Made by a program: the position numbers and the translations under genes. From a virus (taxonomy: Duplodnaviria > Heunggongvirae > Uroviricota > Caudoviricetes): a DNA stretch of 32,066 nt. The notes under the pieces are model-generated. The model worked only from the letters and a program-made list of their open reading frames with translations, was not told the DNA's origin and did no database searches. Below are positions 4,104 to 24,628 of the stretch, in pieces. Every line of letters begins with the position of its first letter. Positions within the stretch are counted from its first letter, which is position 1. The DNA lies in IMG/VR virus record IMGVR_UViG_2565956714_000003. One strand, 5' to 3'.

Positions 4104-4108
4104 CCGTT

Positions 4109-5131: not shown

Positions 5132-5161
5132 GGCAAAAGAAAACCCGGCACGGTGACCGGG
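5132..5161 (-). terminator. Rho-independent terminator-like hairpin downstream of cI
   Basis: Stem CCCGG/CCGGG (5144..5148 / 5157..5161) with 8-nt loop, followed on the minus strand by UUUUCUUUUG (plus strand CAAAAGAAAA 5134..5143). Confidence 0.5.
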
Positions 5162-5282
5162 ATTCTTACGCCGTTAGGTAAAGATATTATTGCGGTGGCT
5201 TAATATTACTACCTAGAGCAAAGATAGGAATTAGTTCTTTACTGAATGAGCACAATGCCCAGTTGATAATTTTTAATTGGTA

Positions 5283-5972: not shown

Positions 5973-6076
5973 AGTCCAAATGTACAACCAAGGTTTTATT
6001 TCATCAAACGAAAATGGTTGTTGACTAAAAACAACCATAGTTTTAATCTTGATTCAAATTAACCACGGAGGTTGTT
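5973..6076. promoter_or_regulatory. OR operator / divergent promoter region between cI and cro
   Basis: Heptamer ACAACCA at 5984..5990 and 6031..6037, TGGTTGT at 6016..6022; perfect inverted repeat ATGGTTGTT-N7-AACAACCAT (6014..6038) overlapping a TTGACT -35-like hexamer (6021..6026) with TTTAAT -10-like hexamer at 6042..6047. Confidence 0.7.
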
Positions 6077-6307
6077 ATGAACCCAGCTATCAAAACAGCG
6101 ATCAATATCGTTGGTTCACAAAAGAAACTGGGCGCTGCTTGCGAAGTTTCACAGCAGGCCGTCTATAAGTGGCTTCACAACAAAGCAAAGGTATCCCCTG
6201 AACATGTCGGCAGCATTGTTACGGCTACTGGTGGAGTAGTGAAGGCATACCAGATTCGCCCGGATCTTCCGAAGTTGTTTCCACACACCGAAAAGAACGC
6301 AGCTTAA
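6077..6307 (+). CDS. cro: Cro-like repressor (YdaS-family small HTH protein)
   Basis: 76-aa ORF divergent from cI; RBS GGAGG; HTH-like segment KKLGAACEVSQQAVYKWL. Confidence 0.8.
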   Translation: MNPAIKTAINIVGSQKKLGAACEVSQQAVYKWLHNKAKVSPEHVGSIVTATGGVVKAYQIRPDLPKLFPHTEKNAA

Positions 6308-6319
6308 ATTTCCATTTCA

Positions 6320-6332
6320 CGCTCTTTAACAA
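6320..6332 (+). promoter_or_regulatory. boxA-like antitermination motif downstream of cro
   Basis: CGCTCTTTAACAA matches the boxA consensus (lambda CGCTCTTA; rrn-type TGCTCTTTAACAA) at the position nutR occupies in lambda; no obvious boxB hairpin follows. Confidence 0.45.
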
Positions 6333-6376
6333 TAAGCAATCAACTTAACAGTCAATTCAAACTAAAGGAGTCAATT

Positions 6377-6916
6377 ATGCAACCACTTACATACCAACAG
6401 ACTAGCGGATTTAGCCCGACTGCGGTGATAAATCGTTCTCAAACAAAACAGGTGCCAGGCCACGAAAAAATCCGTGATGCCGTCCGCGCTTGGTCGGCTG
6501 AAGATAATCAGGATGTCGTTGCCACACTCATTGTGAATGAGTATCGGGAGCAGGGCGGCGGCACCATCGATTTCCCTGATGATGTCAGCCGTGCACGCCA
6601 GAAGCTGTTCCGCTTCCTCGATAACAAATTCGATTCTGAAAAATACCGAAATAACGTGCGTGAACTGACCCCGGCAATTCTGGCGGTACTACCGCTGGAA
6701 TATCGCGGTTACCTGGTTGAGCAGGATAGCTTCATGGCTAGGTTGGCTGAAATGGAAAAGGAACTCAGTGAGGCAAAACAGGCTGTCATTCTCAACGCAC
6801 CACGCCACCAGAAACTGAAGGAAATTAGTGAAGGTATTGTGTCGATGTTTCGTGTGGACCCAGATCTGGCTGGTCCATTGATGGCGATGGTTACTACCAT
6901 GCTGGGGGCGATATGA
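6377..6916 (+). CDS. CII-position regulatory protein, YdaT-like (179 aa)
   Basis: ORF with RBS AAGGAG between cro and O; motifs EYREQGGG and LTPAILAVLPLEYR resemble Rac YdaT as I remember it. Confidence 0.55.
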   Translation: MQPLTYQQTSGFSPTAVINRSQTKQVPGHEKIRDAVRAWSAEDNQDVVATLIVNEYREQGGGTIDFPDDVSRARQKLFRFLDNKFDSEKYRNNVRELTPAILAVLPLEYRGYLVEQDSFMARLAEMEKELSEAKQAVILNAPRHQKLKEISEGIVSMFRVDPDLAGPLMAMVTTMLGAI

Positions 6917-7002
6917 CAGGTTCAGAAATGGCGAAAGCCGGTCTGCTGGAACAGAACCGACTTTCAGGTGCAAATCGTAACACACTCATTGCGGGAGGAA
7001 TT

Positions 7003-7932
7003 ATGGCAAACACTGCTGAGATATTCAATTTTCCAGTGCCGGATGCGGCACAAAAGGAGCCGCGCGTGGCAGATCTCGATGATGGTTATACGCGCATTGC
7101 AAATGAGTTGCTGGAAGCTGTGATGCTGGCCGGATTAACACAGCACCAGCTTCTGGTCTTCCTGGCTGTCATGCGCAAAACATATGGCTTTAATAAAAAA
7201 CTGGATTGGGTGAGCAACGAGCAACTTTCCGAGTTGACCGGGATATTGCCGCACAAGTGTTCTGCTGCAAAAAGTGTTCTGGTAAAGCGTGGGATTTTTA
7301 TTCAGAGCGGGCGGAATATCGGCATTAATAATGTGGTCAGTGAATGGTCAACATTACCCGAATCAGGTAAGAAAAATAAAGTTTACCTGAAAGAGGTAAA
7401 TTTACCTGAATCAGGTAAGAAAAGTTTACCCAAATCAGGTAAAGGCACTTACCCGAATCAGGTAAACACAAAAGACAAACTAACAAAAGACAATATAAAA
7501 CCTTATTCGTCCGAGAATTCTGGCGAATACTCTGACCAGCCAGAAAACGACCTTCCTGTGGTGAAACCGGATGCTGCGATTCAGAGCGGCAGCAAGTGGG
7601 GGACAGCAGAAGACCTGACCGCCGCAGAGTGGATGTTTGACATGGTGAAGACCATCGCGCCATCAGCCAGAAAACCGAATTTTGCAGGGTGGGCTAACGA
7701 TATCCGCCTGATGCGTGAACGTGACGGACGTAACCACCGCGACATGTGCGTGCTGTTCCGCTGGGCATGCCAGGACAACTTCTGGTCCGGTAACGTGCTA
7801 AGTCCGGCCAAACTCCGTGACAAGTGGACCCAACTCGAAATCAACCGTAACAAGCAACAGGCTGGAGTGACAGCCGGAAAATCAAAACTGGACCTGACAA
7901 ACACTGACTGGATTTATGGGGTGGATTTATGA
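7003..7932 (+). CDS. O: Replication initiator O (non-lambda N-terminal iteron-binding domain, lambda-type C-terminal domain)
   Basis: C-terminal ~100 aa near-identical to lambda O (...WMFDMVKTIAPSARKPNFAGWANDIRLMRERDGRNHRDMCVLFRWACQDNFW...); N-terminal half differs from lambda O; RBS GGGAGG before ATG 7003; the track ORF starts upstream at 6913. Confidence 0.9.
   Translation: MANTAEIFNFPVPDAAQKEPRVADLDDGYTRIANELLEAVMLAGLTQHQLLVFLAVMRKTYGFNKKLDWVSNEQLSELTGILPHKCSAAKSVLVKRGIFIQSGRNIGINNVVSEWSTLPESGKKNKVYLKEVNLPESGKKSLPKSGKGTYPNQVNTKDKLTKDNIKPYSSENSGEYSDQPENDLPVVKPDAAIQSGSKWGTAEDLTAAEWMFDMVKTIAPSARKPNFAGWANDIRLMRERDGRNHRDMCVLFRWACQDNFWSGNVLSPAKLRDKWTQLEINRNKQQAGVTAGKSKLDLTNTDWIYGVDL
7354..7465. 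repeat. Replication origin iterons (five ~17-bp repeats) inside the O coding region, followed by an A-rich segment
   Basis: TTACCCGAATCAGGTAA (7354..7370), TTACCTGAAAGAGGTAA (7383..7399), TTACCTGAATCAGGTAA (7402..7418), TTACCCAAATCAGGTAA (7426..7442), TTACCCGAATCAGGTAA (7449..7465); each has an internal TTACC...GGTAA dyad; A-rich stretch 7466..7510. Confidence 0.85.
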
Positions 7933-8630
7933 AAAACATCGCCGCACAAATGGTTAACTTTGACTGTGAGCAGATGCGTCGGATCGCCAACAACATGCCG
8001 GAACAGTACGACGAAAAGCCACAGGTACAGCAGGTAGCGCAGATCATCAACGGTGTGTTCAGCCAGTTACTGGCAACTTTCCCGGCGAGCCTGGCTAACC
8101 GTGACCAGAATGAACTGAACGAAATCCGCCGCCAGTGGGTTCTGGCTTTCCGGGAAAACGGGATCACCACAATGGAACAGGTTAACGCAGGAATGCGCGT
8201 AGCCCGTCGGCAGAATCGACCATTCCTGCCATCACCCGGGCAGTTTGTCGCCTGGTGCCGGGAAGAAGCATCCGTTACCGCCGGGCTGCCAAACGCCAGC
8301 GAGCTGGTTGATATGGTTTACGAGTATTGCCGGAAGCGCGGGCTGTATCCGGATGCAGAGTCTTATCCGTGGAAATCAAACGCGCACTACTGGCTGGTTA
8401 CCAACCTGTATCAGAACATGCGGGCCAATGCGTTGACTGACGCGGAATTACGGCGCAAGGCTGCCGATGAACTGTCCTGTATGACCGCACGAATTAACCG
8501 TGGTGAGGCTATACCTGAACCAGTAAAACAACTTCCTGTCATGGGCGGTAGACCTCTAAATCGTGCACAGACTCTGGCGAAGATCGCAGAAATCAAAGCT
8601 AAGTTTGGGCTGAAAGGAGCAAGGGTATGA
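7929..8630 (+). CDS. P: Replication protein P (DnaB helicase loader)
   Basis: 233-aa ORF near-identical to lambda P (MKNIAAQMVNFDCEQMRRIANNMPEQYDEKPQVQQVAQIINGVFSQLLATFPASLANRDQNE...); ATGA overlap with O. Confidence 0.97.
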   Translation: MKNIAAQMVNFDCEQMRRIANNMPEQYDEKPQVQQVAQIINGVFSQLLATFPASLANRDQNELNEIRRQWVLAFRENGITTMEQVNAGMRVARRQNRPFLPSPGQFVAWCREEASVTAGLPNASELVDMVYEYCRKRGLYPDAESYPWKSNAHYWLVTNLYQNMRANALTDAELRRKAADELSCMTARINRGEAIPEPVKQLPVMGGRPLNRAQTLAKIAEIKAKFGLKGARV

Positions 8631-8929
8631 CGGGCAAAGAGGCAATTATTCATTACCTGGGGACTCATAAGAACTTCTGTGCGCAGGACGTTGCCGCGGT
8701 AACAGGCGCAACCGTAACCAGCATAAATCAGGCTGCGGCTAAAATGGCGCGGGCAGGAATCCTGGTCGTTGATGGTAAGGTCTGGCGAACGGTGTATTAC
8801 CGGTTCGCTACCAGAGAAGAACGGGAAGGAAAGGTGAGCACGAATCTGATTTTTAAGGAGTGTCGCCAGAGTGCCGCGATGAAACGGGTATTGAGGGTAT
8901 ATAAAAGAACATCAATGGGTACACAATGA
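8627..8929 (+). CDS. ren: Ren protein (lambda-like)
   Basis: ORF MTGKEAIIHYLGTHKNFCAQDVAAVTGATVTSINQAAAKMARAGILVVDGKVWRTVYYRFATREEREGK... matches lambda Ren. Confidence 0.9.
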   Translation: MTGKEAIIHYLGTHKNFCAQDVAAVTGATVTSINQAAAKMARAGILVVDGKVWRTVYYRFATREEREGKVSTNLIFKECRQSAAMKRVLRVYKRTSMGTQ

Positions 8930-8996
8930 TGAAACAGGTGAGTTGAGTTCAAACTGTAGTACAATTCTCTCCAGTTTGAACAGGAAAGAATATGCT

Positions 8997-9329
8997 ATGA
9001 ACCCTTATATTTATCTTGGTGGTGCAATACTTGCAGAGGTCATTGGTACAACCTTAATGAAGTTTTCAGAAGGTTTTACACGGTTATGGCCATCTGTTGG
9101 TACAATTATTTGTTATTGTGCATCATTCTGGTTATTAGCTCAGACGCTGGCTTATATTCCTACAGGGATTGCTTATGCTATCTGGTCAGGAGTCGGTATT
9201 GTCCTGATTAGCTTACTGTCATGGGGACTTTTCGTCCAACGGCTGGACCTGCCAGCCATTATAGGCATGATGTTGATTTGTGCCGGTGTGTTGGTTATTA
9301 ATCTATTGTCACGAAGCACACCACATTAA
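8997..9329 (+). CDS. emrE: Small multidrug resistance (SMR) efflux transporter EmrE
   Basis: 110-aa ORF MNPYIYLGGAILAEVIGTTLMKFSEGFTRLWPSVGTIICYCASFWLLAQTLAYIPTGIAYAIWSGVGIVL... recognised as EmrE (four TM helices, conserved membrane Glu in the first helix). Confidence 0.95.
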   Translation: MNPYIYLGGAILAEVIGTTLMKFSEGFTRLWPSVGTIICYCASFWLLAQTLAYIPTGIAYAIWSGVGIVLISLLSWGLFVQRLDLPAIIGMMLICAGVLVINLLSRSTPH

Positions 9330-9359
9330 AAATAATTTGTTTCTAAACTACTAAAATAT

Positions 9360-9400
9360 GGAGGCTCTTATATTTATATGAGCCTCGTTTTATGCTTTTT
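9360..9400 (+). terminator. Rho-independent terminator downstream of emrE
   Basis: Stem GGAGGCTC/GAGCCTC with AT-rich loop, followed by GTTTTATGCTTTTT. Confidence 0.6.
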
Positions 9401-9585
9401 GTTAATGTCTTTATTTTTTTATGTATTCTTTTGTGCTTTCAAGATTATGGCGTAAGAAAATTGCAATACGATTATTGTTGTATATTCAAGATAATGTGAC
9501 CTTAATTGTCTTTTTAAATAAAAATTAAACAAAAATTATATCCCACCACTAATGTTTATAAAAGCATACGTTAGCAGGTGTCACC

Positions 9586-11112
9586 ATGAAAAAAGCCATA
9601 GCATATATGCGATTTTCATCACCAGGTCAGATGTCTGGCGACTCATTAAACCGACAGAGAAGACTTATTGCTGAATGGTTAAAGGTAAATAGTGATTATT
9701 ATCTTGATACCATAACATATGAAGATTTAGGATTAAGTGCATTCAAAGGAAAGCATGCACAATCAGGAGCTTTTTCGGAATTTTTAGATGCTATAGAGCA
9801 TGGTTATATATTGCCAGGAACTACATTGTTAGTTGAAAGTCTGGACAGACTTTCAAGAGAAAAAGTCGGTGAAGCGATTGAACGTCTGAAATTGATTTTG
9901 AATCACGGTATTGATGTTATAACTCTTTGCGACAATACAGTCTATAATATTGACTCTTTGAATGAGCCATATTCATTAATAAAAGCCATACTTATAGCAC
10001 AAAGGGCAAATGAAGAAAGCGAGATAAAGTCAAGTCGGGTTAAATTATCATGGAAGAAAAAACGGCAGGATGCACTGGAATCAGGTACGATTATGACGGC
10101 GTCTTGTCCGAGATGGCTCTCCTTAGATGACAAAAGAACGGCTTTTGTTCCAGACCCCGACAGGGTGAAAACTATTGAGCTAATTTTTAAACTCAGGATG
10201 GAAAGGCGCTCATTGAATGCAATAGCCAAGTATTTAAATGATCATGCTGTAAAGAATTTCTCAGGAAAAGAAAGTGCATGGGGACCTTCTGTAATTGAAA
10301 AATTATTAGCGAATAAAGCTCTGATAGGTATATGCGTACCTTCATATCGTGCAAGAGGGAAAGGAATAAGTGAAATCGCGGGCTATTATCCCAGAGTCAT
10401 ATCAGATGATTTGTTTTACGCTGTACAGGAAATTCGGTTGGCACCTTTTGGTATTAGCAATAGTAGCAAGAATCCTATGCTAATAAATCTACTTCGAACA
10501 GTTATGAAGTGTGAGGCTTGTGGTAATACCATGATTGTTCATGCGGTATCTGGAAGTTTGCATGGCTATTATGTTTGTCCGATGAGAAGATTACATCGAT
10601 GTGACAGGCCATCAATAAAAAGAGATTTGGTTGATTATAATATCATTAATGAATTGCTTTTTAATTGTAGCAAAATTCAACCAGTTGAAAACAAGAAAGA
10701 TGCTAATGAAACTTTAGAGTTAAAAATTATTGAGCTTCAGATGAAAATTAATAATTTAATCGTTGCATTGTCTGTCGCGCCTGAAGTTACCGCTATAGCA
10801 GAGAAAATAAGACTATTAGATAAGGAATTACGAAGGGCTTCGGTATCATTGAAAACTTTGAAGAGTAAAGGTGTAAATTCATTCAGTGATTTTTATGCTA
10901 TTGACTTAACCAGTAAAAATGGACGAGAGTTATGCCGTACACTTGCCTATAAAACATTCGAAAAAATCATAATTAATACGGATAATAAAACCTGTGATAT
11001 CTATTTTATGAATGGCATTGTTTTTAAACACTATCCTTTAATGAAAGTAATATCCGCCCAGCAGGCGATAAGTGCTCTCAAATATATGGTTGATGGTGAG
11101 ATTTATTTCTAA
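9586..11112 (+). CDS. ybcK: Large serine recombinase (resolvase/invertase-type catalytic domain plus recombinase and Cys-rich zinc-ribbon region)
   Basis: 508-aa ORF; N-terminal AIAYMRFSSPGQ matches the serine-recombinase active-site motif Y-x-R-x-S-x3-Q; Cys cluster CEACGN...CPMRRLHRCDRP; gene body AT-rich. Confidence 0.85.
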   Translation: MKKAIAYMRFSSPGQMSGDSLNRQRRLIAEWLKVNSDYYLDTITYEDLGLSAFKGKHAQSGAFSEFLDAIEHGYILPGTTLLVESLDRLSREKVGEAIERLKLILNHGIDVITLCDNTVYNIDSLNEPYSLIKAILIAQRANEESEIKSSRVKLSWKKKRQDALESGTIMTASCPRWLSLDDKRTAFVPDPDRVKTIELIFKLRMERRSLNAIAKYLNDHAVKNFSGKESAWGPSVIEKLLANKALIGICVPSYRARGKGISEIAGYYPRVISDDLFYAVQEIRLAPFGISNSSKNPMLINLLRTVMKCEACGNTMIVHAVSGSLHGYYVCPMRRLHRCDRPSIKRDLVDYNIINELLFNCSKIQPVENKKDANETLELKIIELQMKINNLIVALSVAPEVTAIAEKIRLLDKELRRASVSLKTLKSKGVNSFSDFYAIDLTSKNGRELCRTLAYKTFEKIIINTDNKTCDIYFMNGIVFKHYPLMKVISAQQAISALKYMVDGEIYF

Positions 11113-11310
11113 ATAATGATCTTGGATTTTAAGTTATGCTATGATGATAAAGTGCAAGACAGAATTAATTATCTTTAACGAAACTTAATGGGTAATTACT
11201 TTGTTTGCTCCCACAAGCGAGTTTTGTACGGCTGTATTGGGGTAGTAAATGAGCTATACAATCTTAATCATTTGTTAGGTGAGAACTCTTGGTCGCAGAT
11301 TCAAATACTG

Positions 11311-11360
11311 AAAATACGTGACAAATTATTATGAGCAAAATGGTGTATGTCACGTATTTT
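11311..11360. repeat. 50-bp palindromic element: 13-bp perfect inverted repeats flanking a 24-bp spacer
   Basis: AAAATACGTGACA (11311..11323) and its exact reverse complement TGTCACGTATTTT (11348..11360) in the AT-rich ybcK-ybcL intergenic region. Confidence 0.8.
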
Positions 11361-11575
11361 GAATGGTAGGTTAAAAAATAACACCGACTTTCGTAGGTAT
11401 TACTAATAATAAAGCAGAGTTTTTAATAGTATCAATGTGCTTTGTGTATATTGTGGCAAATAATTGGGTTGGGGGTACAATTGTGATTGCTTTTGCATGA
11501 ACATTGCGCCTTTATGCATAATGAGATAAAGGAATATCAAATAAAATAACGATAGGTCATAACAAAGAGGTTTTT

Positions 11576-12127
11576 ATGAAAACACTTATCGTTTCAACTG
11601 TATTGGCATTCATAACATTTTCTGCGCAGGCTGCAGCATTTCAGGTCACTAGTAATGAAATAAAAACAGGAGAGCAACTTACAACGTCTCATGTCTTTTC
11701 TGGATTTGGGTGTGAAGGTGGTAATACATCGCCCTCATTAACCTGGTCTGGTGTTCCTGAAGGTACCAAAAGCTTTGCCGTAACTGTATATGATCCAGAT
11801 GCACCTACAGGCAGTGGTTGGTGGCATTGGACTGTTGTTAATATTCCAGCAACAGTAACATATTTGCCCGTTGATGCAGGAAGACGTGATGGAACAAAAC
11901 TGCCGACTGGTGCTGTTCAAGGCCGAAATGATTTTGGCTATGCTGGGTTTGGTGGCGCATGTCCTCCTAAAGGAGATAAACCACATCATTACCAGTTTAA
12001 AGTATGGGCTCTAAAAACTGAAAAGATTCCTGTAGATTCTAACTCCAGCGGAGCGTTAGTTGGTTATATGCTTAATGCTAATAAAATCGCAACCGCTGAG
12101 ATAACACCAGTTTATGAGATAAAGTAG
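11576..12127 (+). CDS. ybcL: Periplasmic PEBP/RKIP-family protein (UPF0098)
   Basis: 183-aa ORF with signal peptide MKTLIVSTVLAFITFSAQA and PEBP-like core (YDPDAP...GWWHW...HHYQFKVWAL). Confidence 0.9.
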   Translation: MKTLIVSTVLAFITFSAQAAAFQVTSNEIKTGEQLTTSHVFSGFGCEGGNTSPSLTWSGVPEGTKSFAVTVYDPDAPTGSGWWHWTVVNIPATVTYLPVDAGRRDGTKLPTGAVQGRNDFGYAGFGGACPPKGDKPHHYQFKVWALKTEKIPVDSNSSGALVGYMLNANKIATAEITPVYEIK

Positions 12128-12136
12128 GGTGAGAGT

Positions 12137-12934
12137 ATGCTGGCAAGAGGTAAGACTAACTTAAAGATCGAAGAAATACGGATGCATAAACATCATGAGA
12201 TTCATAGGGTTAAGCCTCTTATGCCAGCTTTGTGTCGTATCCGTCAGGGAAAGAAAGTTATCAATTGGGAGACGCATACTTTAACTGTTGATAATAATCA
12301 AATAATATTATTTCCTTGTAGTTATGAATTTTATATTGAGAATTATCCTGAAGCAGGGCTTTATCTTGCAGAAATGCTTTACTTACCCATTGATTTAATT
12401 GAGAGGTTCCAAAAACTTTATACGGTAACTGATCAAATACGTAACAAAACAAGTTTCTTTTTACCTCAGAATCCTGAGTTAATATATTGTTGGGAGCAAC
12501 TAAAAACATCTGTTTCCCGAGGCTTCTCAACTAAAATTCAGGAGCACTTAGCAATGGGCGTTCTACTTTCGTTAGGAGTGAATCATGTTAATCATTTACT
12601 TTTATCATATAGTAAACAATCATTGATAAGTCGTTGTTATAACCTGCTGCTATCCGAACCCGGCACAAAATGGACAGCAAACAAGGTTGCACGATATCTC
12701 TACATTTCTGTTTCTACATTACATCGCCGTCTAGCAAGCGAGGGGGTAAGTTTCCAAAGTATACTGGACGATGTGAGGTTAAATAATGCGTTGTCTGCTA
12801 TACAAACGACGGTAAAACCTATAAGCGAGATTGCCAGAGAAAATGGTTATAAGTGTCCTTCTCGTTTTACTGAAAGATTTCATAATCGTTTTAATATAAC
12901 ACCAAGAGAGATAAGAAAAGCTTCCAGAGAGTAA
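12137..12934 (+). CDS. ybcM: AraC-family transcriptional regulator
   Basis: 265-aa ORF starting 9 nt after the ybcL stop (operon-like); C-terminal AraC-type HTH region ([21 protein letters not shown]...[18 protein letters not shown]). Confidence 0.85.
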
Positions 12935-12998
12935 AAGTGTTTTAAGAAGGAGCAATTCTATCGATTTTGATTTTGGGAAATCAACACGGCATAATTAT

Positions 12999-13027
12999 GT
13001 CACCGGAGCCTGAACAACTCCGGTGAC
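12999..13027 (+). other. Perfect 10-bp stem-loop between ybcM and ylcH
   Basis: GTCACCGGAG (12999..13008) ... CTCCGGTGAC (13018..13027) with 9-nt loop; no U-run follows. Confidence 0.5.
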
Positions 13028-13050
13028 TTCTGCGCTAAACGGGGACGTTT

Positions 13051-13152
13051 ATGCGCACATACAATCCAACCTCTCTTCTCCATTCACAGATGCAGAAATG
13101 CACCTGCGATATTTTGCATCCAGCGTTTGATCTCTGCGGAGGTGAAGCGTGA
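13051..13152 (+). CDS. ylcH: Small protein YlcH-like (33 aa)
   Basis: Short [36 protein letters not shown] with RBS GGGGA; its stop overlaps the ybcN GTG start region. Confidence 0.55.
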
Positions 13153-13604
13153 ACCTCCCACAAGATGGTATCAAATTGCATCGCGGTAACTTCACCGCTA
13201 TCGGTCGGCAGATCCAGCCTTATCTGGAGAACGGCAAATGCTTTCGCATGGTGCTTAAACCGTGGCGCGAGAGACGCAGTCTTTCCCAGAATGCACTCAG
13301 CCACATGTGGTACAGCGAAATCAGTGAATACCTCATCAGCAGGGGTAAAACGTTCGCCACTCCAGCTTGGGTAAAAGATGCTCTCAAACACACATATCTC
13401 GGTTATGAAACCAAAGACCTGGTTGATGTCGTAACCGGTGATATCACCACTATCCAGTCGTTACGCCATACCTCCGATCTTGATACCGGAGAGATGTATG
13501 TCTTCCTGTGTAAGGTTGAAGCCTGGGCGATGAATATTGGTTGCCATCTGACTATTCCGCAGAGCTGCGAGTTCCAGCAGCTCCGCGACAAGCAGGAGGC
13601 GTAA
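13149..13604 (+). CDS. ybcN: NinB-like recombination protein (YbcN)
   Basis: 151-aa ORF with GTG start preceded by GGAGG; recognised as the NinB/YbcN family. Confidence 0.85.
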
Positions 13605-13774
13605 TGGCTACACCGCTTATTCGTGTCATGAACGGACACATCTACAGAGTACCAAATCGTCGTAAGCGTAAACCTGAGCTGAAGCCATCCGAAATACCAA
13701 CACTGCTCGGGTATACCGCCAGCCTGGTTGATAAAAAATGGTTGCGACTGGCAGCAAGGAGGAGTCATGGCTGA
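13604..13774 (+). CDS. ninE: NinE protein
   Basis: 56-aa [59 protein letters not shown]; TAATG overlap with the ybcN stop. Confidence 0.85.
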   Translation: MATPLIRVMNGHIYRVPNRRKRKPELKPSEIPTLLGYTASLVDKKWLRLAARRSHG

Positions 13775-14057
13775 TTTGAGAAAAGCAGCGCGTGGTCGGG
13801 AATGCCAGGTAAGAATCCCTGGCGTATGTAATGGCAACCCTGAAACGTCTGTACTGGCACATATCCGGCTGACTGGATTGTGCGGCACCGGTACCAAACC
13901 GCCAGACCTGATTGCCACCATTGCATGTTCTGCCTGCCACGACGAAATCGACCGCCGCACACATTTTGTCGATGCTGCATATGCAAAAGAATGCGCGCTG
14001 GAAGGTATGGCGAGAACACAGGTTATCTGGCTGAAAGAGGGGATTATTAAGGCGTGA
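13767..14057 (+). CDS. ybcO: YbcO-like Cys-rich putative nuclease (DUF1364)
   Basis: 96-aa ORF with RBS AAGGAGGAG; Cys/His-rich ([11 protein letters not shown]...CSACHDEID); overlaps the ninE 3' end. Confidence 0.8.
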
Positions 14058-14416
14058 ATACCTACAGCATCACATTACCCTGGCCTCCGAGCAATAATCG
14101 CTATTACCGCCATAATCGCGGGCGCACGCACGTCAGCGCAGAGGGGCAGGCATACCGCGATAACGTCGCCCGAATCATTAAAAACGCAATGCTGGATATC
14201 GGCCTGGCTATGCCTGTGAAAATCCGCATTGAGTGCCACATGCCGGATCGCCGTCGCCGTGACCTGGATAATCTGCAAAAAGCCGCTTTTGACGCACTCA
14301 CTAAAGCAGGTTTCTGGCTGGATGATGCTCAGGTCGTTGATTACCGCGTTGTGAAGATGCCTGTTACCAAAGGTGGGAGGCTGGAACTGACCATCACCGA
14401 AATGGGGAATGAATGA
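14054..14416 (+). CDS. rusA: RusA Holliday-junction resolvase
   Basis: 120-aa [41 protein letters not shown]... recognised as RusA; GTG start overlapping the ybcO stop (GTGA). Confidence 0.93.
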
Positions 14417-14553
14417 TGTTTGAGTTTTATATGGCAGAACGTCTTCGCCACCGCTGGGGGCGTCTGCGCTTATATCGTTTCCCCGGTTCTGTTTTGACCG
14501 ATTACCGAATACTGAAGAATTACGCCAAAACCCTGACAGGAGCAGGAGTATGA
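14413..14553 (+). CDS. ylcG: Small protein YlcG-like (46 aa)
   Basis: [49 protein letters not shown] overlapping the rusA stop. Confidence 0.6.
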
Positions 14554-14638
14554 AGTCAGAGATAACAATCAACTAATACTGTTTCGTTGATTTTTGCTTG
14601 TAATTGGCGTTCTGGTCTGATTTTTGTGGAGTAAGTTG

Positions 14639-15022
14639 ATGCGTGATATTCAGATGGTTCTTGAGCGTTGGGGAGCGTGGGCGGCTAATAATCATGAAGA
14701 TGTGACCTGGTCGTCCATTGCCGCCGGTTTTAAGGGATTAATTACTTCAAAAGTAAAATCTCGCCCGCAATGTTGTGACGATGACGCGATGATTATTTGC
14801 GGGTGCATGGCCCGTCTGAAAAAGAACAACAGCGATTTGCACGATTTATTAGTAGATTATTATGTAGTCGGTATGACATTCATGTCACTGGCAGGTAAGC
14901 ATTGCTGCTCTGATGGTTATATCGGGAAAAGGTTACAGAAGGCTGAGGGCATAATTGAAGGGATGTTAATGGCATTAGATATCCGGTTAGAGATGGATAT
15001 CGTTGTTAATAACTCTAATTAA
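14639..15022 (+). CDS. quuD: Late-gene antiterminator Q (QuuD type)
   Basis: 127-aa [27 protein letters not shown]... with Cys-rich region ([16 protein letters not shown]); RBS GGAG; lies immediately before the late region. Confidence 0.85.
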
Positions 15023-15034
15023 TATGCCAATTGT

Positions 15035-15073
15035 TTACTAAAAATTATTAAAAATGGGGCGTTGAGACGCCCC
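15035..15073 (-). terminator. Candidate rho-independent terminator for the porin gene (minus strand)
   Basis: Hairpin GGGGCG-TTGAGA-CGCCCC (15056..15073) followed on the minus strand by a U-rich run (plus strand CTAAAAATTATTAAAAAT 15038..15055). Confidence 0.5.
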
Positions 15074-15161
15074 CAAAAATAAAGGGTAATATATAACAGA
15101 AGGTTTATATAGTTAGAAGCAAGGTTGTGCTTCTAAAGGAAGTGGCTTGAGGGAGCCACTT

Positions 15162-15203
15162 ATATGTTGGGGAGGCAACGCCTCCCGCAACATATCTTTT
15201 TCG
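15162..15203 (+). terminator. Strong rho-independent terminator on the plus strand downstream of Q (tR'-like candidate)
   Basis: About 15-bp stem ATATGTTGGGGAGGC / GCCTCCC(G)CAACATAT with 3-nt loop, followed by CTTTTTC (15196..15202). Confidence 0.6.
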
Positions 15204-16131
15204 TAATCAGATTAGAACTGGTAAACCAGACCTACAGCAACGATGTCATCAGTGCTTACACCGAGTGCTTTAGTGAAGTCATTTTTGTCAAGCAGGTTGA
15301 TTTTGTAATCAACGAAAGTAGACATATTTTTGTTGAAGTAATAGGTTGCACCTACATCAACATATTTGACTAAGTCCTGATCGCCCCATACTCCAAGATC
15401 TTTACCTTTAGATTGCAGGTAAGCAACGGACGGACGCAGACCGAAATCGAACTGATATTGTGCAACAGCTTCGAAGTTTTGGGCTTTATTAGCAACGAAG
15501 TGATCAGCAAATACAGTCATATTCTGGGTTTCAGAATAGGTAGTGGCCAGGTAAATGTTGTTAGCGTCATATTTCAGACCTGCGGCCCAAACTTCTGCAT
15601 TTTTACCGGAAGCAAATACTTCAGGAAGAACTTTCCCTGCATTAACTTGAGTGTCGGTACGATCAGATTTCGCATAAGTTGCACCGATACCGAATCCTTC
15701 GTATTCATAGGTAGCAGAGAAACCGAAGCCATCACCGTTACCTTCAGTGTAGTTATCGAAATCGCTACGATCGTTTTTGCCTTGGTACTGAGCAGCAAAG
15801 TTCAGACCATCAACCAGACCAAAGAAGTCGTTGTTACGATAGGTTGCAACACCAGTGGTGCGACCAGTCATGAACACATCTGTTTGGGTCCAGGTATCGC
15901 CACCGAATTCTGGCAGAACGTCAGTCCACGCACCGATGTCGTATGCTACACCGTAGTTACGGCCGTAATCGATTGAGCCGTAGTCACCGAATTTCAGGCC
16001 TGCAAATGCAAGACGGGTTTTGTCTTTGGAGGAACCTTGAGATTCAGCGCGGTTGCCTTTGAATTCATATTCCCACTGACCGAAACCAGTCAGTTGATCG
16101 TTGATTTGGGTTTCACCTTTGAAGCCAAGAC

Positions 16132-16140
16132 GGGCATAAG
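16132..16140. repeat. Target-site duplication (left copy) GGGCATAAG
   Basis: Identical 9-mer directly flanks both IS ends (16132..16140 and 17198..17206). Confidence 0.95.
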
Positions 16141-17197
16141 GGCTTTGTTGAATAAATCAGATTTCGGGTAAGTCTCCCCCGTAGCGGGTTGTGTTTTCAG
16201 GCAATACGCACGCTTTCAGGCATACCTGCTTTCGTCATTTTGTTCAGCGCTCGTACCAGGGCCATAGCCTCCGCAACCTGACCATCGTAGTCACGCAGCG
16301 TCAGTGAACCCCCGAACAGCTGTTTTACCCGGTACATCGCCGTTTCCGCTATCGAGCGACGGTTGTAATCTGTTGTCCATTTCCACCGCGCATTACTCCC
16401 GGTCATTCGCTGATTAGCCACTGCACGGTTACGGTCTGCATATTCACCGGGCCAGTAACCCGCACCTTTTCGGGGAGGGATAAGCGCGCTGATTTTCTTA
16501 CGCCGCAGTTCATCGTGACATAGCCGGGTATCGTAAGCGCCATCGGCGGCGGCTGACCTGATTTTCCGGTGGGTTTGCCGGATTAACCCGGGGAAGGCCT
16601 CTGAGTCCGTAACGTTGTTCAGCGACAGGTCAGCGCAGATGATTTCATGTGTTTTACTGTCAACGGCGAGATGCAGCTTACGCCAGATACGGCGGCGTTC
16701 CTGGCCATGCTTTTTGACTTTCCACTCGCCTTCACCGAAGACCTTCAGCCCGGTGGAATCAATTACCAGGTGTGCGATTTCACCCCGGGTGGGCGTTTTG
16801 AAACTGACATTAACCGACTTTGCCCGCCTGCTGACACAGCTGTAATCCGGGCAGCGTAGCGGAACGTTCATCAGAGAAAAAATGGAATCAATAAAGCCCT
16901 GCGCAGCGCGCAGGGTCAGCCTGAATACGCGTTTAATGACCAGCACAGTCGTGATGGCAAGGTCAGAATAGCGCTGAGGTCTGCCTCGTGAAGAAGGTGT
17001 TGCTGACTCATACCAGGCCTGAATAGCTTCATCATCCAGCCAGAAAGTTATGGAGCCACGGTTGATGAGGGCTTTATTGTAGGTGGGCCAGTTGGTGATT
17101 TTGAACTTTTGCTTTGCCACGGAACGGTCTGCGTTGTCGGGAAGATGCGTGATCTGATCCTTCAACTCAGCAAAAGTTCGATTTATTCAACAAAGCC
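16141..17197 (-). mobile_element. IS903/IS102-type insertion sequence (IS5 family), complete, 1057 bp
   Basis: Perfect 18-bp terminal inverted repeats GGCTTTGTTGAATAAATC (16141..16158) and GATTTATTCAACAAAGCC (17180..17197); 9-bp direct target duplication; one transposase ORF. Confidence 0.9.
16197..17165 (-). CDS. IS903-type transposase (DDE)
   Basis: 322-aa ORF filling the IS; start 32 bp inside the right inverted repeat. Confidence 0.85.
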   Translation of the reverse strand: MKDQITHLPDNADRSVAKQKFKITNWPTYNKALINRGSITFWLDDEAIQAWYESATPSSRGRPQRYSDLAITTVLVIKRVFRLTLRAAQGFIDSIFSLMNVPLRCPDYSCVSRRAKSVNVSFKTPTRGEIAHLVIDSTGLKVFGEGEWKVKKHGQERRRIWRKLHLAVDSKTHEIICADLSLNNVTDSEAFPGLIRQTHRKIRSAAADGAYDTRLCHDELRRKKISALIPPRKGAGYWPGEYADRNRAVANQRMTGSNARWKWTTDYNRRSIAETAMYRVKQLFGGSLTLRDYDGQVAEAMALVRALNKMTKAGMPESVRIA

Positions 17198-17206
17198 GGG
17201 CATAAG
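17198..17206. repeat. Target-site duplication (right copy) GGGCATAAG
   Basis: Identical to 16132..16140. Confidence 0.95.
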
Positions 17207-17963
17207 TAGTATCACCATCATCTGCATCATTAGAGGAGAAGTAGTGCTTGGCATTAACTTTCCCGTACAGATCCAGCTTGTTACTGTCTTTATTATAAAT
17301 TTCAGCTGCCTGAGCAGACATCGCCATCAGTACTGATGCAGCTACAGCAGAAATTGCCACTGTTAATTTTTTCATCGTGAGCCCTTTTTTTTGAACTATT
17401 ATTAAAAAATGATGTCACTGCGCGATAAATATTCATCTAATCAATGTGATTATTTCAAGATGTAAGTTTTAGTTTCTCATTTAATTTGTGAAGTAGATCT
17501 CTATTTTTATCTGAACTTTTTCTATCGAAACCTATTTATGGCTCTTATTTGAACAAAAATAAACCTATTAGCTAATTTATATTAATGGTTGTTATTTATG
17601 GAGGTTCTATAATTCGGCAGTTTAATTTAAATCAACTAAAAATAACGTCTGAAATTATTTATTGGTTATTTGTTGAGGTTTTCTTATGTATTTGTGGTGG
17701 TGTTTTGAACACTCGGTAGCATTCTCATAAATATCATTCAGTGGTTTACGTACGTAAAAAATTGGTTATGCTGTTAAGAGTGGTTACTTCGTCACACAGC
17801 TTAAACCCGCCGTCGAGCTGGTTTTTCCATTTTTTGAGTCTCGATATTAGCTGATAACTCAATACCTGAGTTATTCACTGACTCCGAGTCTGTTACGTTT
17901 CTGCTTTTTTGCGATACGTTGTATTCCCTCAATTTACACCCGCTTTGTCTGCGAGGTGGGGTT

Positions 17964-18179
17964 ATGAAATCCATGGATAAGTTAACAACGGGTGTCGCCT
18001 ATGGCACCTCAGCAGGTAGTGCCGGTTACTGGTTTTTACAGCTGCTCGATAAAGTCACGCCCTCACAGTGGGCAGCAATAGGTGTGCTGGGTAGCCTGGT
18101 ATTTGGCCTGCTGACGTACCTGACAAACCTTTATTTCAAGATTAAAGAAGATAAGCGCAAGGCTGCGAGAGGTGAATAA
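17964..18179 (+). CDS. essD: Holin, phage 21 S-type pinholin with dual-start motif
   Basis: 71-aa [74 protein letters not shown]; two in-frame starts (Met1, Met4) as in holin/antiholin pairs; two predicted TM helices. Confidence 0.9.
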
Positions 18180-18676
18180 TGCCTCCATCATTACGAAAAG
18201 CCGTTGCTGCTGCTATTGGTGGCGGAGCAATTGCTATAGCATCAGTGTTAATTACTGGCCCAAGTGGTAACGATGGTCTGGAAGGTGTCAGCTACATACC
18301 ATACAAAGATATTGTTGGTGTATGGACTGTATGTCACGGGCATACAGGAAAAGACATCATGCTCGGTAAAACGTATACCAAAGCAGAATGCAAAGCCCTC
18401 CTGAATAAAGACCTTGCCACGGTCGCCAGACAAATTAACCCGTACATCAAAGTCGATATACCGGAAACAATGCGCGGCGCTCTTTACTCATTCGTTTACA
18501 ACGTGGGTGCTGGCAATTTCAGAACATCGACGCTTCTTCGCAAAATAAACCAGGGCGATATCAAAGGCGCATGTGATCAGCTACGTCGCTGGACATATGC
18601 TGGCGGTAAGCAATGGAAAGGTCTCATGACTCGTCGTGAGATTGAGCGTGAAATCTGTTTGTGGGGTCAGCAATGA
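18179..18676 (+). CDS. rrrD: Endolysin, lysozyme with N-terminal signal-anchor-release (SAR) domain (R21 type)
   Basis: 165-aa ORF; hydrophobic Gly/Ala-rich N-terminus [20 protein letters not shown], then lysozyme-like core; start overlaps the holin stop. Confidence 0.9.
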
Positions 18677-19134
18677 ACAGAGTAACCGCGATTATCTCCG
18701 CTCTGGTTATCTGCATCATCGTCGGCCTGTCATGGGCTGTTAATCATTACCGTGATAACGCCATTACCTACAAAGCCCAGCGCGACAAAAATGCCAGAGA
18801 ACTGAAGCTGGCGAACGCGGCAATTACTGACATGCAGATGCGTCAGCGTGATGTTGCTGCGCTCGATGCAAAATACACGAAGGAGTTAGCTGATGCGAAA
18901 GCTGAAAATGATGCTCTGCGTGATGATGTTGCCGCTGGTCGTCGTCGGTTGCACATCAAAGCAGTCTGTCAGTCAGTGCGTGAAGCCACCACCGCCTCCG
19001 GCGTGGATAATGCAGCCTCCCCCCGACTGGCAGACACCGCTGAACGGGATTATTTCACCCTCAGAGAGAGGCTGATCACTATGCAAAAACAACTGGAAGG
19101 AGCCCAGAAGTATATTAATGAGCAGTGCAGATAG
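18673..19134 (+). CDS. rzpD: Spanin inner-membrane subunit Rz (lambda-like)
   Basis: 153-aa [63 protein letters not shown]... matches lambda Rz; ATGA overlap with the endolysin. Confidence 0.93.
18893..19075 (+). CDS. rzoD: Spanin outer-membrane lipoprotein Rz1, embedded in the +1 frame of Rz
   Basis: 60-aa [27 protein letters not shown]... with lipobox LVVVGC and proline-rich body, entirely inside Rz. Confidence 0.9.
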
Positions 19135-19165
19135 AGCTGCCCATATCGATGGGCAACTCATGCAA

Positions 19166-19459
19166 TTATTGTGAGCAATACACACGCGCTTCCAGCGGAG
19201 TATAAATGCCTAAAGTAATAAAACCGAGCAATCCATTTACGAATGTTTGCTGGGTTTCTGTTTTAACAACATTTTCTGCGCCGCCACAAATTTTGGCTGC
19301 ATCAACAGTTTTCTCCTGTCCAATTCCCGAAACGAAGAAGTGATGGGTGATGGTTTCCTTTGGTGTTACTGCTGTCGGTTTGTTTCCAACAGTAAACGTC
19401 TGTTGAGCACATCCTGTAATAAGCATTGCCAGAGCGGCAGAAAACAACATTTTTTTCAT
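19166..19459 (-). CDS. borD: Bor lipoprotein (serum-resistance moron, lambda-like)
   Basis: 97-aa ORF MKKMLFSAALAMLITGCAQQTFTVGNKPTAVTPKETITHHFFVSGIGQEKTVDAAKICGGAENVVKTETQQTFVNGLLGFITLGIYTPLEARVYCSQ with lipobox LITGC. Confidence 0.93.
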   Translation of the reverse strand: MKKMLFSAALAMLITGCAQQTFTVGNKPTAVTPKETITHHFFVSGIGQEKTVDAAKICGGAENVVKTETQQTFVNGLLGFITLGIYTPLEARVYCSQ

Positions 19460-19818
19460 CTTATTATCCTGCATTGTTAAAAACGGCAGAATCCTATGTG
19501 ACAACAATTAAACGATAGTTAAATGGATTGATGAAAATTAAAACTATATAGGTGGATGCTCAGCCTATTGGAGGAGGGGGGCACTCAGAATCCTGTGGAA
19601 TGAAATAAACCGCTCTTTCTGTCCATTACCCTTTTAGCTGCGCTGTATCGTCGCCGTATTCCCGCATTAACCATGACCGTAGCCCGACGGGGAATTCCTT
19701 CTGCGTGAGTGTGCGGGAATAATCAAAAACGATGCACACCGGGTTTTACTGTGCTGACAGACGCAGGGTTACCCTCATAGTCGCTTTTCCGGTGCGATGG
19801 TGGAAGAAACCGGGATGT

Positions 19819-20013
19819 TTATTCATCATCACTTTGGATTGATGTATATGCTCTCTTTTCTGACGTTAGTCTCCGACGGCAGGCTTCAATGACCCAGGCT
19901 GAGAAATTCCCAGACCCTTTTTGCTCAAGAGCGATGTTAATTTGTTCAATCATTTGGTTAGGAAAGCGGATGTTGCGGGTTGTTGTTCTGCGGGTTCTGT
20001 TCTTAGTTGACAT
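19819..20013 (-). CDS. Small basic protein, possible ribbon-helix-helix DNA-binding fold (DLP12 YlcI/DUF3950-like)
   Basis: 64-aa ORF MSTKNRTRRTTTRNIRFPNQMIEQINIALEQKGSGNFSAWVIEACRRRL...; basic N-terminus and the pattern R-x-I-R-F-P...I are typical of Arc/CopG-like folds. Confidence 0.5.
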   Translation of the reverse strand: MSTKNRTRRTTTRNIRFPNQMIEQINIALEQKGSGNFSAWVIEACRRRLTSEKRAYTSIQSDDE

Positions 20014-20149
20014 GAGGTTGCCCCGTATTCAGTGTTGCTGATTTGTATTGTCTGAAGTTGTTTTTACGTTAAGTTGATGCAGATCAATTAATACGATACC
20101 TGCGTCATAATTGATTATTTGACGTGGTTTGATGGCGTAGATGCACGTT

Positions 20150-20401
20150 GTGATATGTAGATGATAATTATTATCATTTTTCGGGTCCTTTCCGGCGATC
20201 CGACAGGTTACGGGGCGGCGACCTCGCGGGTTTTCGCTATTTATGAAAATTTTCCGGTTTAAGGCGTTTCCGTTCTTCTTCGTCATAACTTAATGTTTTT
20301 ATTTAAAATACCCTCTGAAAAGAAAGGAAACGACAGGTGCTGAAAGCGAGCTTTTTGGCCTCTGTCGTTTCCTTTCTCTGTTTTTGTCCGTGGAATGAAC
20401 A
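20150..20401. promoter_or_regulatory. Lambda-type cos site (cosQ, cosN, cosB); 12-nt cohesive end GGGCGGCGACCT at 20213..20224
   Basis: Sequence ...GATGATAATTATTATCATTTTTCGGGTCCTTTCCGGCGATCCGACAGGTTACG | GGGCGGCGACCTCGCGGGTTTTCGCTATTTATGAAAATTTTCCGG... matches the lambda right-end/left-end junction as I recall it; lies directly upstream of Nu1. Confidence 0.9.
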
Positions 20402-20921
20402 ATGGAAGTCAACAAAAAGCAGCTGGCTGATATTTTCGGTGCGAGTATCCGTACCATTCAGAACTGGCAGGAGCAGGGAATGCCCGTTCTGCGAGGCGGT
20501 GGCAAGGGTAATGAGGTGCTTTATGATTCTGCCGCCGTCATAAAATGGTATGCCGAAAGGGATGCTGAAATTGAGAACGAAAAGCTGCGCCGGGAAGTTG
20601 AAGAACTGCGGCAGGCCAGCGAGACAGATCTCCAGCCAGGGACTATTGAGTACGAACGCCATCGACTTACGCGTGCGCAGGCCGACGCACAGGAGCTGAA
20701 AAATGCCAGAGACTCCGCTGAAGTGGTGGAAACCGCATTCTGTACTTTCGTGCTGTCGCGGATCGCAGGTGAAATTGCCAGTATTCTCGACGGGATCCCC
20801 CTGTCGGTGCAGCGGCGTTTTCCGGAACTGGAAAACCGACATGTTGATTTCCTGAAACGGGATATCATCAAAGCCATGAACAAAGCAGCCGCGCTGGATG
20901 AACTGATACCGGGGTTGCTGA

Positions 20922-20947
<26 letters not shown>
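20402..20947 (+). CDS. nu1: Terminase small subunit Nu1
   Basis: 181-aa ORF MEVNKKQLADIFGASIRTIQNWQEQGMPVLRGGGKGNEVLYDSAAVIKWYAERDAEIENEKLRRE... matches lambda Nu1. Confidence 0.97.

Positions 20948-24628
<3,681 letters not shown>

Follow-up and report, generated by a model that had tools for sequence, protein, structure and literature searches.

What interrupted the porin gene between the late antiterminator and the lysis genes of this Escherichia coli prophage, how recently, and with what consequences for the porin, for the RNA made from its 3' UTR and for late transcription? We addressed this question in a 32,066-nucleotide stretch of viral DNA (hereafter, the window), which reads as a full-length DLP12-family lambdoid E. 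coli prophage at argU. Positions 1-16140 align with ZF8-1 over their full length at 99.4% identity. The intD gene of ZF8-1 abuts a tRNA-Arg gene, and we read the argU site from this match, the tRNA itself falling just outside the window. ZF8-1 carries the annotated DLP12 set (emrE, ybcK-L-M-N, ninE, ybcO, rusA, ylcG, quuD, nmpC, essD, rrrD, rzpD and bor), and the gene order in the window is that of DLP12 in K-12 (intD … emrE-ybcK-ybcL-ybcM … rusA-ylcG-quuD-nmpC-essD-rrrD-rzpD-bor). By contrast with the K-12 DLP12, which is a 21-kb remnant, the prophage in the window retains early-left, immunity, replication and structural genes. The quuD product is the QuuD protein WP_001204791.1 of genomes that have the porin gene uninterrupted, and is related to Q21 of PDB 6P18/6JNX (E = 7.6e-7); the lysis cassette (17964-19134) is annotated likewise in identical DNA of E. 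coli RM9387. Features of the region are listed in Table 1.

Table 1. Features of the interrupted porin locus and its surroundings, in window coordinates.
Feature	Position	Strand	Basis or remark
quuD, Q-type late antiterminator, 127 aa	14639-15022	+	Pfam Phage_antitermQ, 178.8 bits
Porin 3' UTR, ipeX region (boundaries inferred)	15047-15211	minus	Hairpin cluster ending in intrinsic terminator
nmpC distal part, codon 58 to stop, including left duplication copy	15212-16140	minus	Without promoter and signal peptide
Target-site duplication, left copy, GGGCATAAG	16132-16140
IS903B (IS5 family, IS903 group), complete, 1057 bp	16141-17197	minus	Perfect inverted repeats; 100% identity to plasmid copies
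IS903B terminal inverted repeats, GGCTTTGTTGAATAAATC	16141-16158 and 17180-17197		18/18 match
IS903B transposase gene	16197-17165	minus (porin strand)	Uninterrupted ORF, Pfam, NCBIfam
nmpC proximal part, signal peptide and 37 mature residues	17187-17375	minus
Target-site duplication, right copy, GGGCATAAG	17198-17206		nmpC nt 170-178, codons 57-60
AT-rich spacer, 28-32% GC	17376-17963		Porin promoter PnmpC leftwards, essD regulatory region rightwards
essD, P21-type holin	17964-18179	+	Pfam Phage_holin_2_1
rrrD, lysozyme	18179-18676	+	Pfam Phage_lysozyme
rzpD/rzoD, spanins	18673-19134 and 18893-19075	+	Pfam Phage_lysis

We re-derived the anatomy of the interrupting element. The sequence GGCTTTGTTGAATAAATC has a single copy on the + strand, at 16141, and a single reverse complement, at 17180, which delimits an IS of 1057 bp. 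The inverted repeats match at all 18 positions and diverge beyond them, and a separate repeat search recovered the same pair. The 9-mer GGGCATAAG occurs twice in the whole window, with both copies abutting IS ends at a spacing of 1066 (1057 + 9); the chance that a given 9-mer recurs at exactly the opposite junction is ~4e-6. The transposase ORF has no internal stops and encodes 322 aa from a TTG at 17165, or 307 aa from a GTG at 17120. Its product matches Pfam DDE_Tnp_1_5 and DDE_Tnp_1 over their full length and NCBIfam transpos_IS5_2 with 357 bits (cut-off 140), and it has D121, D193 and E259 (307-aa numbering), which we take to be the IS903 catalytic triad. Hence, the original prediction of a complete IS903-type element of this length, with perfect 18-bp inverted repeats, an intact transposase ORF and a perfect 9-bp flanking duplication, stood up to re-inspection in each part, and could be narrowed to IS903B by 100% identity over 1057 bp to many enterobacterial plasmid copies annotated as 'IS5-like element IS903B family transposase'. 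At least 99% identity to the IS was found in 2325 nucleotide records, and many strains carry IS903B in multiple copies. The IS903B insertion in cirA of Klebsiella pneumoniae is likewise flanked by a 9-bp duplication (PMC13618097).

We identify the interrupted gene, by its sequence, as that of an NmpC/Lc/OmpD-type general porin, the orthologue of K-12 nmpC. Joining 15212-16140 to 17207-17375, i.e. removing the IS and one copy of the duplication, gave a 1098-nt ORF (365 aa and a stop) with no other frameshifts or stops on translation, as had been predicted, and placed the insertion in codons 57-60, with the duplication corresponding to nt 170-178 of the gene. The restored porin matches the 16-strand porin domain Porin_1 from end to end (1-337/337, 522 bits), has a signal peptide as judged by eye, ends in …LVYQF with the terminal Phe, and agrees with K-12 NmpC (IS5 removed) at 363/365 aa, with 98.1% nucleotide identity. 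The flanking genes, quuD and essD, are the same as in K-12. In the interrupted allele, the proximal frame runs 11 nt into the IS (…YARLC) and meets a TGA (17187-17189), so that the truncated product has 62 aa. Exact copies of this peptide were recovered solely from the source assembly and from a single Logan contig. A 219-aa Porin_1 fragment is called as a gene within the distal part. Because the insertion leaves only the 62-aa N-terminal stub, together with a distal fragment that lacks both promoter and signal peptide, we classify the allele as a porin null and the gene as a pseudogene in the source strain, which is predicted to have no NmpC in its outer membrane.

We next compared the locus with uninterrupted alleles. 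Removal of the IS and one duplication copy from window positions 14600-18700 gave a 3035-bp empty-site reconstruction, in which 16116-16140 is joined to 17207-17221 in the 40-mer CCTTTGAAGCCAAGACGGGCATAAGTAGTATCACCATCAT. The reconstruction is an exact substring of RM9387, and at least 25 more complete genomes contain it at 100% identity, each with the 3035-bp span and the intact porin WP_000737266.1. Since the restored sequence equals the empty-site alleles of RM9387 and other genomes, the insertion appears both clean and recent. This bears out the original impression of a recent event. We consider it highly likely that IS903B recently jumped into codons 57-60 of the lysogenic-conversion porin gene nmpC of a full-length DLP12-family prophage, antisense between Q and the holin genes, generating the 9-bp duplication, with the consequences set out below. 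No evidence speaks against the core of this reading. The mutation is clean but ordinary, being of a kind already known for nmpC.

The insertion is one more independent IS knock-out of nmpC; it involves a third type of IS and a site different from the earlier ones, and leaves current understanding unchanged. In K-12 DLP12, nmpC::IS5 (b0553/insH2) affects the same gene in the same prophage family, at the same position between quuD and essD, and the porin is silent owing to an IS5-family element on the porin strand. However, the K-12 element is IS5, with 1195 bp and a 4-bp duplication as opposed to the 1057 bp and 9-bp duplication of IS903B, and it is located 58 nt from the 3' end of the gene rather than in codons 57-60, in agreement with the earlier suggestion that the two inactivations are independent. 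Independent porin-strand hits in a lambdoid Q-S porin were also found in E. coli TUM1881 (IS903B) and E. coli B (IS1A). They differ from the insertion described here in that the duplication in TUM1881 reads ATTCTGGGT and corresponds to window positions 15521-15529, with an IS that differs at 4 nt and a prophage that has another lysis module, and in that the IS1A of E. coli B lies mid-gene. The same element, with a 9-bp duplication, led to loss of outer-membrane or surface functions in K. pneumoniae cirA::IS903B (PMC13618097) and wbaZ::IS903B (PMC9769513), whereas the insertion in the window hits an accessory porin of an E. coli prophage. The repeated knock-outs support the notion that nmpC, as an accessory porin, is often dispensable or costly.

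Persistence of the allele could instead reflect fixation by selection for porin loss rather than drift, through resistance to porin-specific phages or colicins, or through lower antibiotic permeability in a strain with IS903B-bearing resistance plasmids. Independent hits in nmpC by IS5 (K-12), IS1A (E. coli B) and IS903B at another site (TUM1881) are consistent with such selection, as are reports that NmpC expression heightens colicin and phage sensitivity (PMC11677980) and the well-documented IS903B knock-outs under phage or drug selection in Klebsiella (PMC9769513, PMC13618097). By contrast, nmpC alleles at ≥95% identity are present in ~1600 of 5426 genomes, with the porin intact in most natural carriers; the disrupted examples listed belong mostly to the K-12 laboratory lineage, together with one E. 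coli B strain, and the allele in the window was found in one assembly (E. coli draft GCA_000457305.1) and one read set (SRR785531). We therefore regard fixation by selection as doubtful. Selection concerns the reason for which the allele persists, and is compatible with a recent IS903B transposition into nmpC.

The recent IS903B insertion would also affect ipeX, whose sequence belongs to the porin mRNA, transcribed from the porin promoter (PMC12197685). The Lc porin gene of phage PA-2 is, by description, a similar module, in which an RNA from the 3' UTR reduces OmpC of the host (PMC12197685, PMC10690425); the module in the window differs in being interrupted. The 189 nt that separate the stop codons of quuD and nmpC are all identical to K-12. 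RNAfold predicted four hairpins in succession for the ipeX region, and an intrinsic terminator on the minus strand (stem at 15056-15073 followed by a U run) lies ~165 nt past the porin stop codon, the published ipeX being 167 nt (PMC12197685). Neither an Rfam search of the whole window at gathering thresholds nor scans of 14900-18000 and 4650-5350 with relaxed E-values yielded a meaningful hit; Rfam apparently has no family for ipeX. Normally, processing of the porin mRNA would release ipeX from its 3' UTR, and because 1 kb of IS now separates the ipeX region from the porin promoter, the ipeX arm of lysogenic conversion is likely to be lost or much reduced in the source strain, probably with no ipeX-mediated lowering of OmpC/OmpF.

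PnmpC itself is known from K-12 work (PMC11677980), and its placement within the AT-rich spacer is approximate here. The spacer is identical to that of the intact-porin allele of RM9387, and ~90% identical overall to that of K-12, with the 90 bp beside the porin ATG nearly identical. A consensus scan for sigma-70 promoters called no site for the porin promoter and none for a late promoter close to Q, and the promoter positions are therefore taken from the literature and from inspection by eye. Since the transposase gene shares the porin strand, with its start ~20 nt beyond the stop of the truncated porin frame, transcripts from the porin promoter should enter it. Read-through from the porin promoter into IS5 has been shown experimentally for K-12 nmpC (PMC11677980), and the window offers a natural second test case for the published idea that the nmpC promoter drives a nested transposase gene. 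Such read-through could raise the activity of the cis-acting IS903B copy; a measurable effect on IS903B is conceivable, and we propose it only tentatively. On its sense strand, the transposase gene contains a GC-rich hairpin that is followed by CTTTATTGAT (16897-16915). This hairpin could attenuate read-through, weakening both promoter-driven transposase expression and whatever ipeX synthesis is left. In IS elements, the start of the transposase gene is often shielded from outside transcripts. The IS insertions at the nmpC locus, five out of five, are on the porin strand (IS5 in K-12, IS1A in E. coli B, IS903B in TUM1881, IS1A in GF47, and the insertion in the window), and the shared orientation could reflect a general mechanistic or selective bias rather than chance. 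We consider it unlikely that nmpC serves as a recurrent IS 'launch pad', with the CRP-activated porin promoter making this IS903B the dominant, environmentally regulated donor copy in the source strain, a role that has been demonstrated for the IS5 in K-12 nmpC. The launch-pad proposal takes in the position of IS903B, on the porin strand and only ~180 nt into the porin gene.

The original prediction placed the IS between Q and the lysis genes, where we also find it, and suggested that it may be polar on late transcription, which we judge unlikely. If the IS were strongly polar on Q-dependent late transcription, the prophage would no longer lyse its host or express its morphogenetic genes efficiently. 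IS elements are classically polar. In addition to lying between quuD and essD, the IS contains a weak terminator-like site on the + strand (16543-16556), and the Q-adjacent intergenic region resembles a pR'-leader-tR' unit, both of which favor polarity. The DNA of the ipeX region is, on the + strand, the Q-proximal leader, in which a long hairpin at 15162-15195 is followed by a T run (tR'-like); a candidate Q-proximal promoter (TTGAGA, 19-nt spacer, TAATAT; ~15062-15092) was recognized by eye only and is the one left uncalled by the consensus scan. The porin gene, a candidate moron, is on the strand opposite to the late operon, with an AT-rich region upstream and a terminator-like site after its 3' UTR. 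However, the plaque-forming phage 434B has the DLP12 Q-nmpC::IS5-S-R-Rz module, with the 1.2-kb IS5 in the same gene and orientation, although the element in this precedent is IS5 and not IS903B; the viability of 434B also indicates that the porin is dispensable for the phage. Similarly, the related viable phages Turner, PhiR26_1, mEp332 and ev099 have an antisense porin gene between Q and S, and already transcribe through ~2.2 kb of untranslated antisense porin DNA. Moreover, the Q protein is of the Q21 type, a family linked to terminator resistance; Q21-type factors render RNA polymerase terminator-resistant. Lastly, the regulatory region of the DLP12 lysis operon is known from K-12 work to lie directly upstream of essD (PMC7918800), so the IS would be outside the lysis transcription unit. 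Strong polarity is thus very unlikely, and we are fairly confident that IS903B has no strong polar effect on late or lysis gene expression. Late and lysis transcription would start at a point downstream of the IS, in the regulatory region next to essD; alternatively, it would start at a Q-proximal promoter, with Q-modified, terminator-resistant RNA polymerase crossing the IS.

An assembly artefact, in which a repeated IS was misplaced in the scaffold while the actual genome has an uninterrupted porin gene, is exceedingly improbable and was rejected. Although the source sequence is a draft scaffold and IS903B is multicopy in many strains, both junctions map to a single position in the gene, flanked by the 9-bp duplication expected for IS903, which a misjoin would not create, and an independent Logan assembly of SRR785531 continues from the start of the porin gene for 32 nt into the element. 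The IS junction was found in 0/5426 complete E. coli genomes (megablast with a 120-bp junction query), and an exact-pattern scan for the left junction gave no match in GTDB representative genomes or JGI metagenome contigs. In K-12, nmpC(p+) revertants have arisen through loss of IS5, a precedent on which none of our conclusions rests. Reversion of the IS903B insertion is reasonable in principle, but would require precise excision between the 9-bp repeats, a rare event that depends on the host.

The window contains a single plus-strand copy of the 18-mer GGCTTTGTTGAATAAATC and a single reverse-complement copy, which together bound an element exactly 1057 bp long. The terminal inverted repeats are identical at 18 of 18 positions and diverge beyond, and were recovered independently by an inverted-repeat scan (repeat I1). 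The 9-mer GGGCATAAG occurs only twice in the 32-kb window, abutting both ends of the element, with a spacing in a direct-repeat scan (repeat D4) of 1066, equal to 1057 + 9. Over its full length, the element is 100% identical to many plasmid copies from Escherichia, Enterobacter and Yersinia, annotated as "IS5-like element IS903B family transposase"; copies with at least 99% identity are present in >2300 plasmid records. The transposase has full-length DDE_Tnp_1_5 and DDE_Tnp_1 domains, and scores 357 bits against NCBIfam transpos_IS5_2 (cut-off 140 bits). In 307-aa numbering, positions 121, 193 and 259 carry D, D and E, in keeping with the IS903 catalytic triad (D121, D193, E259). The insertion signature of IS903B is a 9-bp target duplication (PMC13618097). 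Based on the plasmid identity, the domains, the triad and the 9-bp duplication, we infer that the element is a complete and presumably active IS903B, in agreement with the original prediction of an IS903-type element with perfect ends, a perfect duplication and an intact transposase gene. On the sense strand of the transposase gene, a GC-rich 8-bp stem-loop is followed by CTTTATTGAT; this terminator-like site might attenuate read-through or transcription of the transposase gene.

The insertion duplicated nucleotides 170–178 (codons 57–60) of nmpC, the prophage porin gene, as had been predicted. Joining the two porin segments, without the IS and one copy of the duplication, restores a 1098-nt ORF of 365 aa with no additional interruption. 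The product of this restored ORF is a complete general porin (Pfam Porin_1, 1–337 of 337, 522 bits) that matches K-12 NmpC, reconstructed without IS5, at 363 of 365 residues (98.1% nucleotide identity). The proximal product of the split gene is a 62-aa stub consisting of the signal peptide, 37 mature residues and Leu-Cys from the IS end, and the distal fragment has neither a promoter nor a signal peptide; judged from its sequence, production of functional porin from this allele would be impossible. Host-mediated precise excision between the perfect 9-bp repeats could in principle occur, as a rare event; for IS5 in E. coli, such excision was reportedly documented by Zhang, Yen and Saier in 2010.

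The alignment with intact nmpC genes suggested alongside the original prediction used an empty-site query of 3035 bp (window 14600–18700 minus the IS and one duplication copy). This sequence occurs unchanged in E. coli RM9387, and at least 25 other complete genomes carry it at 100% identity over exactly 3035 bp, with the porin annotated as intact (WP_000737266.1). Because the flanks lack substitutions, the duplication is perfect and the IS is identical to circulating plasmid copies, the data point to an insertion that is recent relative to sequence divergence, as anticipated. Alleles of the nmpC type (≥95% identity) are present in ~1600 of 5426 complete E. coli genomes and are mostly intact outside laboratory K-12 and B lineages. 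The porin-IS junction was found in 0 of 5426 complete E. coli genomes, and in none of the GTDB representative genomes or JGI metagenome contigs. An exact match to the 62-aa truncated porin pinpoints NCBI draft assembly GCA_000457305.1 as the source of the window; the match is on scaffold KE705258.1, which contains a 12,189-bp stretch identical to window 11187–23375. A contig in the independent Logan assembly of SRR785531 spans the porin start to 32 nt inside the IS, ruling out a scaffolding error as the source of the junction and indicating that the junction is real.

Several other IS insertions are present at the nmpC locus (see table). The predicted independence from the K-12 IS5 event is borne out by the different element and site, and the window allele is thus a new, independent member of this known series. 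As an event it is ordinary, being the textbook insertion of a very common IS into a gene well known for its inactivation by IS elements, in a public draft genome. In all five insertions (window, TUM1881, K-12, E. coli B and GF47) the transposase gene is on the porin strand, consistent with an orientation bias; n = 5 is too small for significance, and this is only a hint. The IS1A site in GF47 and GF50 falls in the ipeX and Q-proximal leader region, and in GF47 the insertion might detach ipeX or a Q-proximal late promoter from its normal surroundings.

Coordinates of features in the window and of IS insertions at other nmpC loci
Feature	Coordinates	Strand	Description
IS903B element	16141-17197		
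Terminal inverted repeats	16141-16158; 17180-17197	plus; minus	
Target duplication	16132-16140; 17198-17206		
Transposase ORF	16197-17165	minus	single long uninterrupted ORF; 322 aa from TTG, 307 aa from GTG at 17120
Terminator-like site	16897-16915	minus	
Porin segments	15212-16140; 17207-17375	minus	
Stop codon of porin stub	17187-17189	minus	TGA
quuD stop to nmpC stop	15023-15211		
Hairpin region matching ipeX	15047-15211	minus	
Candidate Q-proximal promoter	~15062-15092		TTGAGA, 19-nt spacer, TAATAT
Long hairpin and T run	15162-15201		
DLP12 cargo block	8943-12934		emrE, ylcJ, ybcK (recombinase), ybcL, ybcM
ORF-poor region	4772-5282		~500 bp
CI-like repressor gene	5283-6038	minus	
kil-like gene	4481-4687	minus	
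bor/iss-type gene	19166-19459	minus	
K-12 IS5	L007 (K-12 locus) 692-1886		58 nt 5' of nmpC stop codon
E. coli B IS1A	L011 (E. coli B locus) 1711-2408		nmpC mid-gene
TUM1881 IS903B	L001 (TUM1881 locus) 4921-5977		4 nt differences; porin 97% identical
TUM1881 target duplication	corresponds to window 15521-15529		ATTCTGGGT
GF47/GF50 IS1A	L010 (GF47 locus) 622-1319		quuD-nmpC intergenic region; porin ORF intact

According to Onstead et al. (2024; PMC11677980), the IS5 that lies within K-12 nmpC in the orientation of the gene is the main transposing copy because its transposase gene is transcribed from the porin promoter, PnmpC. In the window, the IS903B transposase gene also runs on the porin strand, beginning ~20 nt past the stop of the truncated porin frame. 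Identity to K-12 is almost complete over the 90 bp preceding the porin ATG, making the same read-through from PnmpC plausible, subject to two caveats: the sense-strand hairpin, and possible shielding of the IS903B transposase start from outside transcripts. We consider it rather unlikely that nmpC is a promoter-equipped launch pad for same-strand insertions, with the window copy as the strain's master IS903B; if true, this would be of modest interest.

The original prediction also raised the possibility that the IS is polar on late transcription, which we judge unlikely from four comparisons. First, the complete phage genome OL657227 ("Mutant Escherichia phage 434 isolate 434B"), with the K-12 DLP12 module as its Q-to-lysis region, carries IS5 after nmpC codon 346, indicating that lytic growth is compatible with an IS in this gene in this orientation. 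Second, an antisense porin lies between Q and S in the viable phages Turner, PhiR26_1, mEp332 and ev099, so late transcription, if it has a Q-adjacent start, already traverses >2 kb of untranslated DNA. Third, the prophage Q protein is of the Q21 type, and RNA polymerase loaded with a Q21-type factor resists terminators. Fourth, the regulatory region of the K-12 lysis operon is directly 5' of essD, with control by a Q-like factor, RpoE and Hha (PMC7918800); if an essD-proximal promoter is operative, the IS would be outside the lysis transcription unit. By eye, we noted a candidate Q-proximal promoter, which a consensus promoter scan did not call, with a long hairpin and T run on its 3' side. 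Relative to K-12, the nmpC-essD spacer has a 16-nt insertion and a C-to-A change (~17902–17917 and 17806–17821), the latter weakening a plus-strand GC hairpin and T run just 5' of essD. Both also occur in RM9387, where the porin is intact, and are therefore unrelated to the IS.

The interval between the quuD and nmpC stop codons is identical to K-12 (189/189 bp). On the porin strand, it includes four hairpins followed by an intrinsic terminator ~165 nt past the porin stop, a region that matches published ipeX in size and position. ipeX, which has no Rfam entry, is a 167-nt RNA of DLP12 and PA-2 that is transcribed from the porin promoter and lowers OmpC (PMC12197685). Since ~1 kb of IS now separates that promoter from ipeX, the other half of lysogenic conversion has probably been abolished or strongly diminished.

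The porin is flanked by DLP12 genes: rusA, ylcG and quuD, whose product (Pfam Phage_antitermQ) is related to Q21 of PDB 6P18, on one side, and essD (P21-type holin), rrrD, rzpD/rzoD and bor on the other. Over its left 16 kb, the window is 99.4% identical to E. coli ZF8-1, whose prophage starts with intD adjoining tRNA-Arg and includes the DLP12 cargo genes emrE, ybcK, ybcL and ybcM; the right 15 kb contain terminase, portal, capsid and tail genes. The window is thus a full-length relative of DLP12, which in K-12 is a remnant. Around the cargo block are int, exo/bet/gam, repressor, O/P, Q, lysis, terminase, portal, capsid and tail genes, and the window looks like an ancestor-type, full-length form of DLP12. 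An ORF-poor region separates the CI-like repressor gene from the kil-like gene, and in it we found no N-like ORF of at least 35 aa on the leftward strand and no match in a permissive Rfam scan. A second lysogenic-conversion gene of the prophage, an intact bor/iss-type lipoprotein gene (Pfam Lambda_Bor), lies 3' of the lysis cassette.
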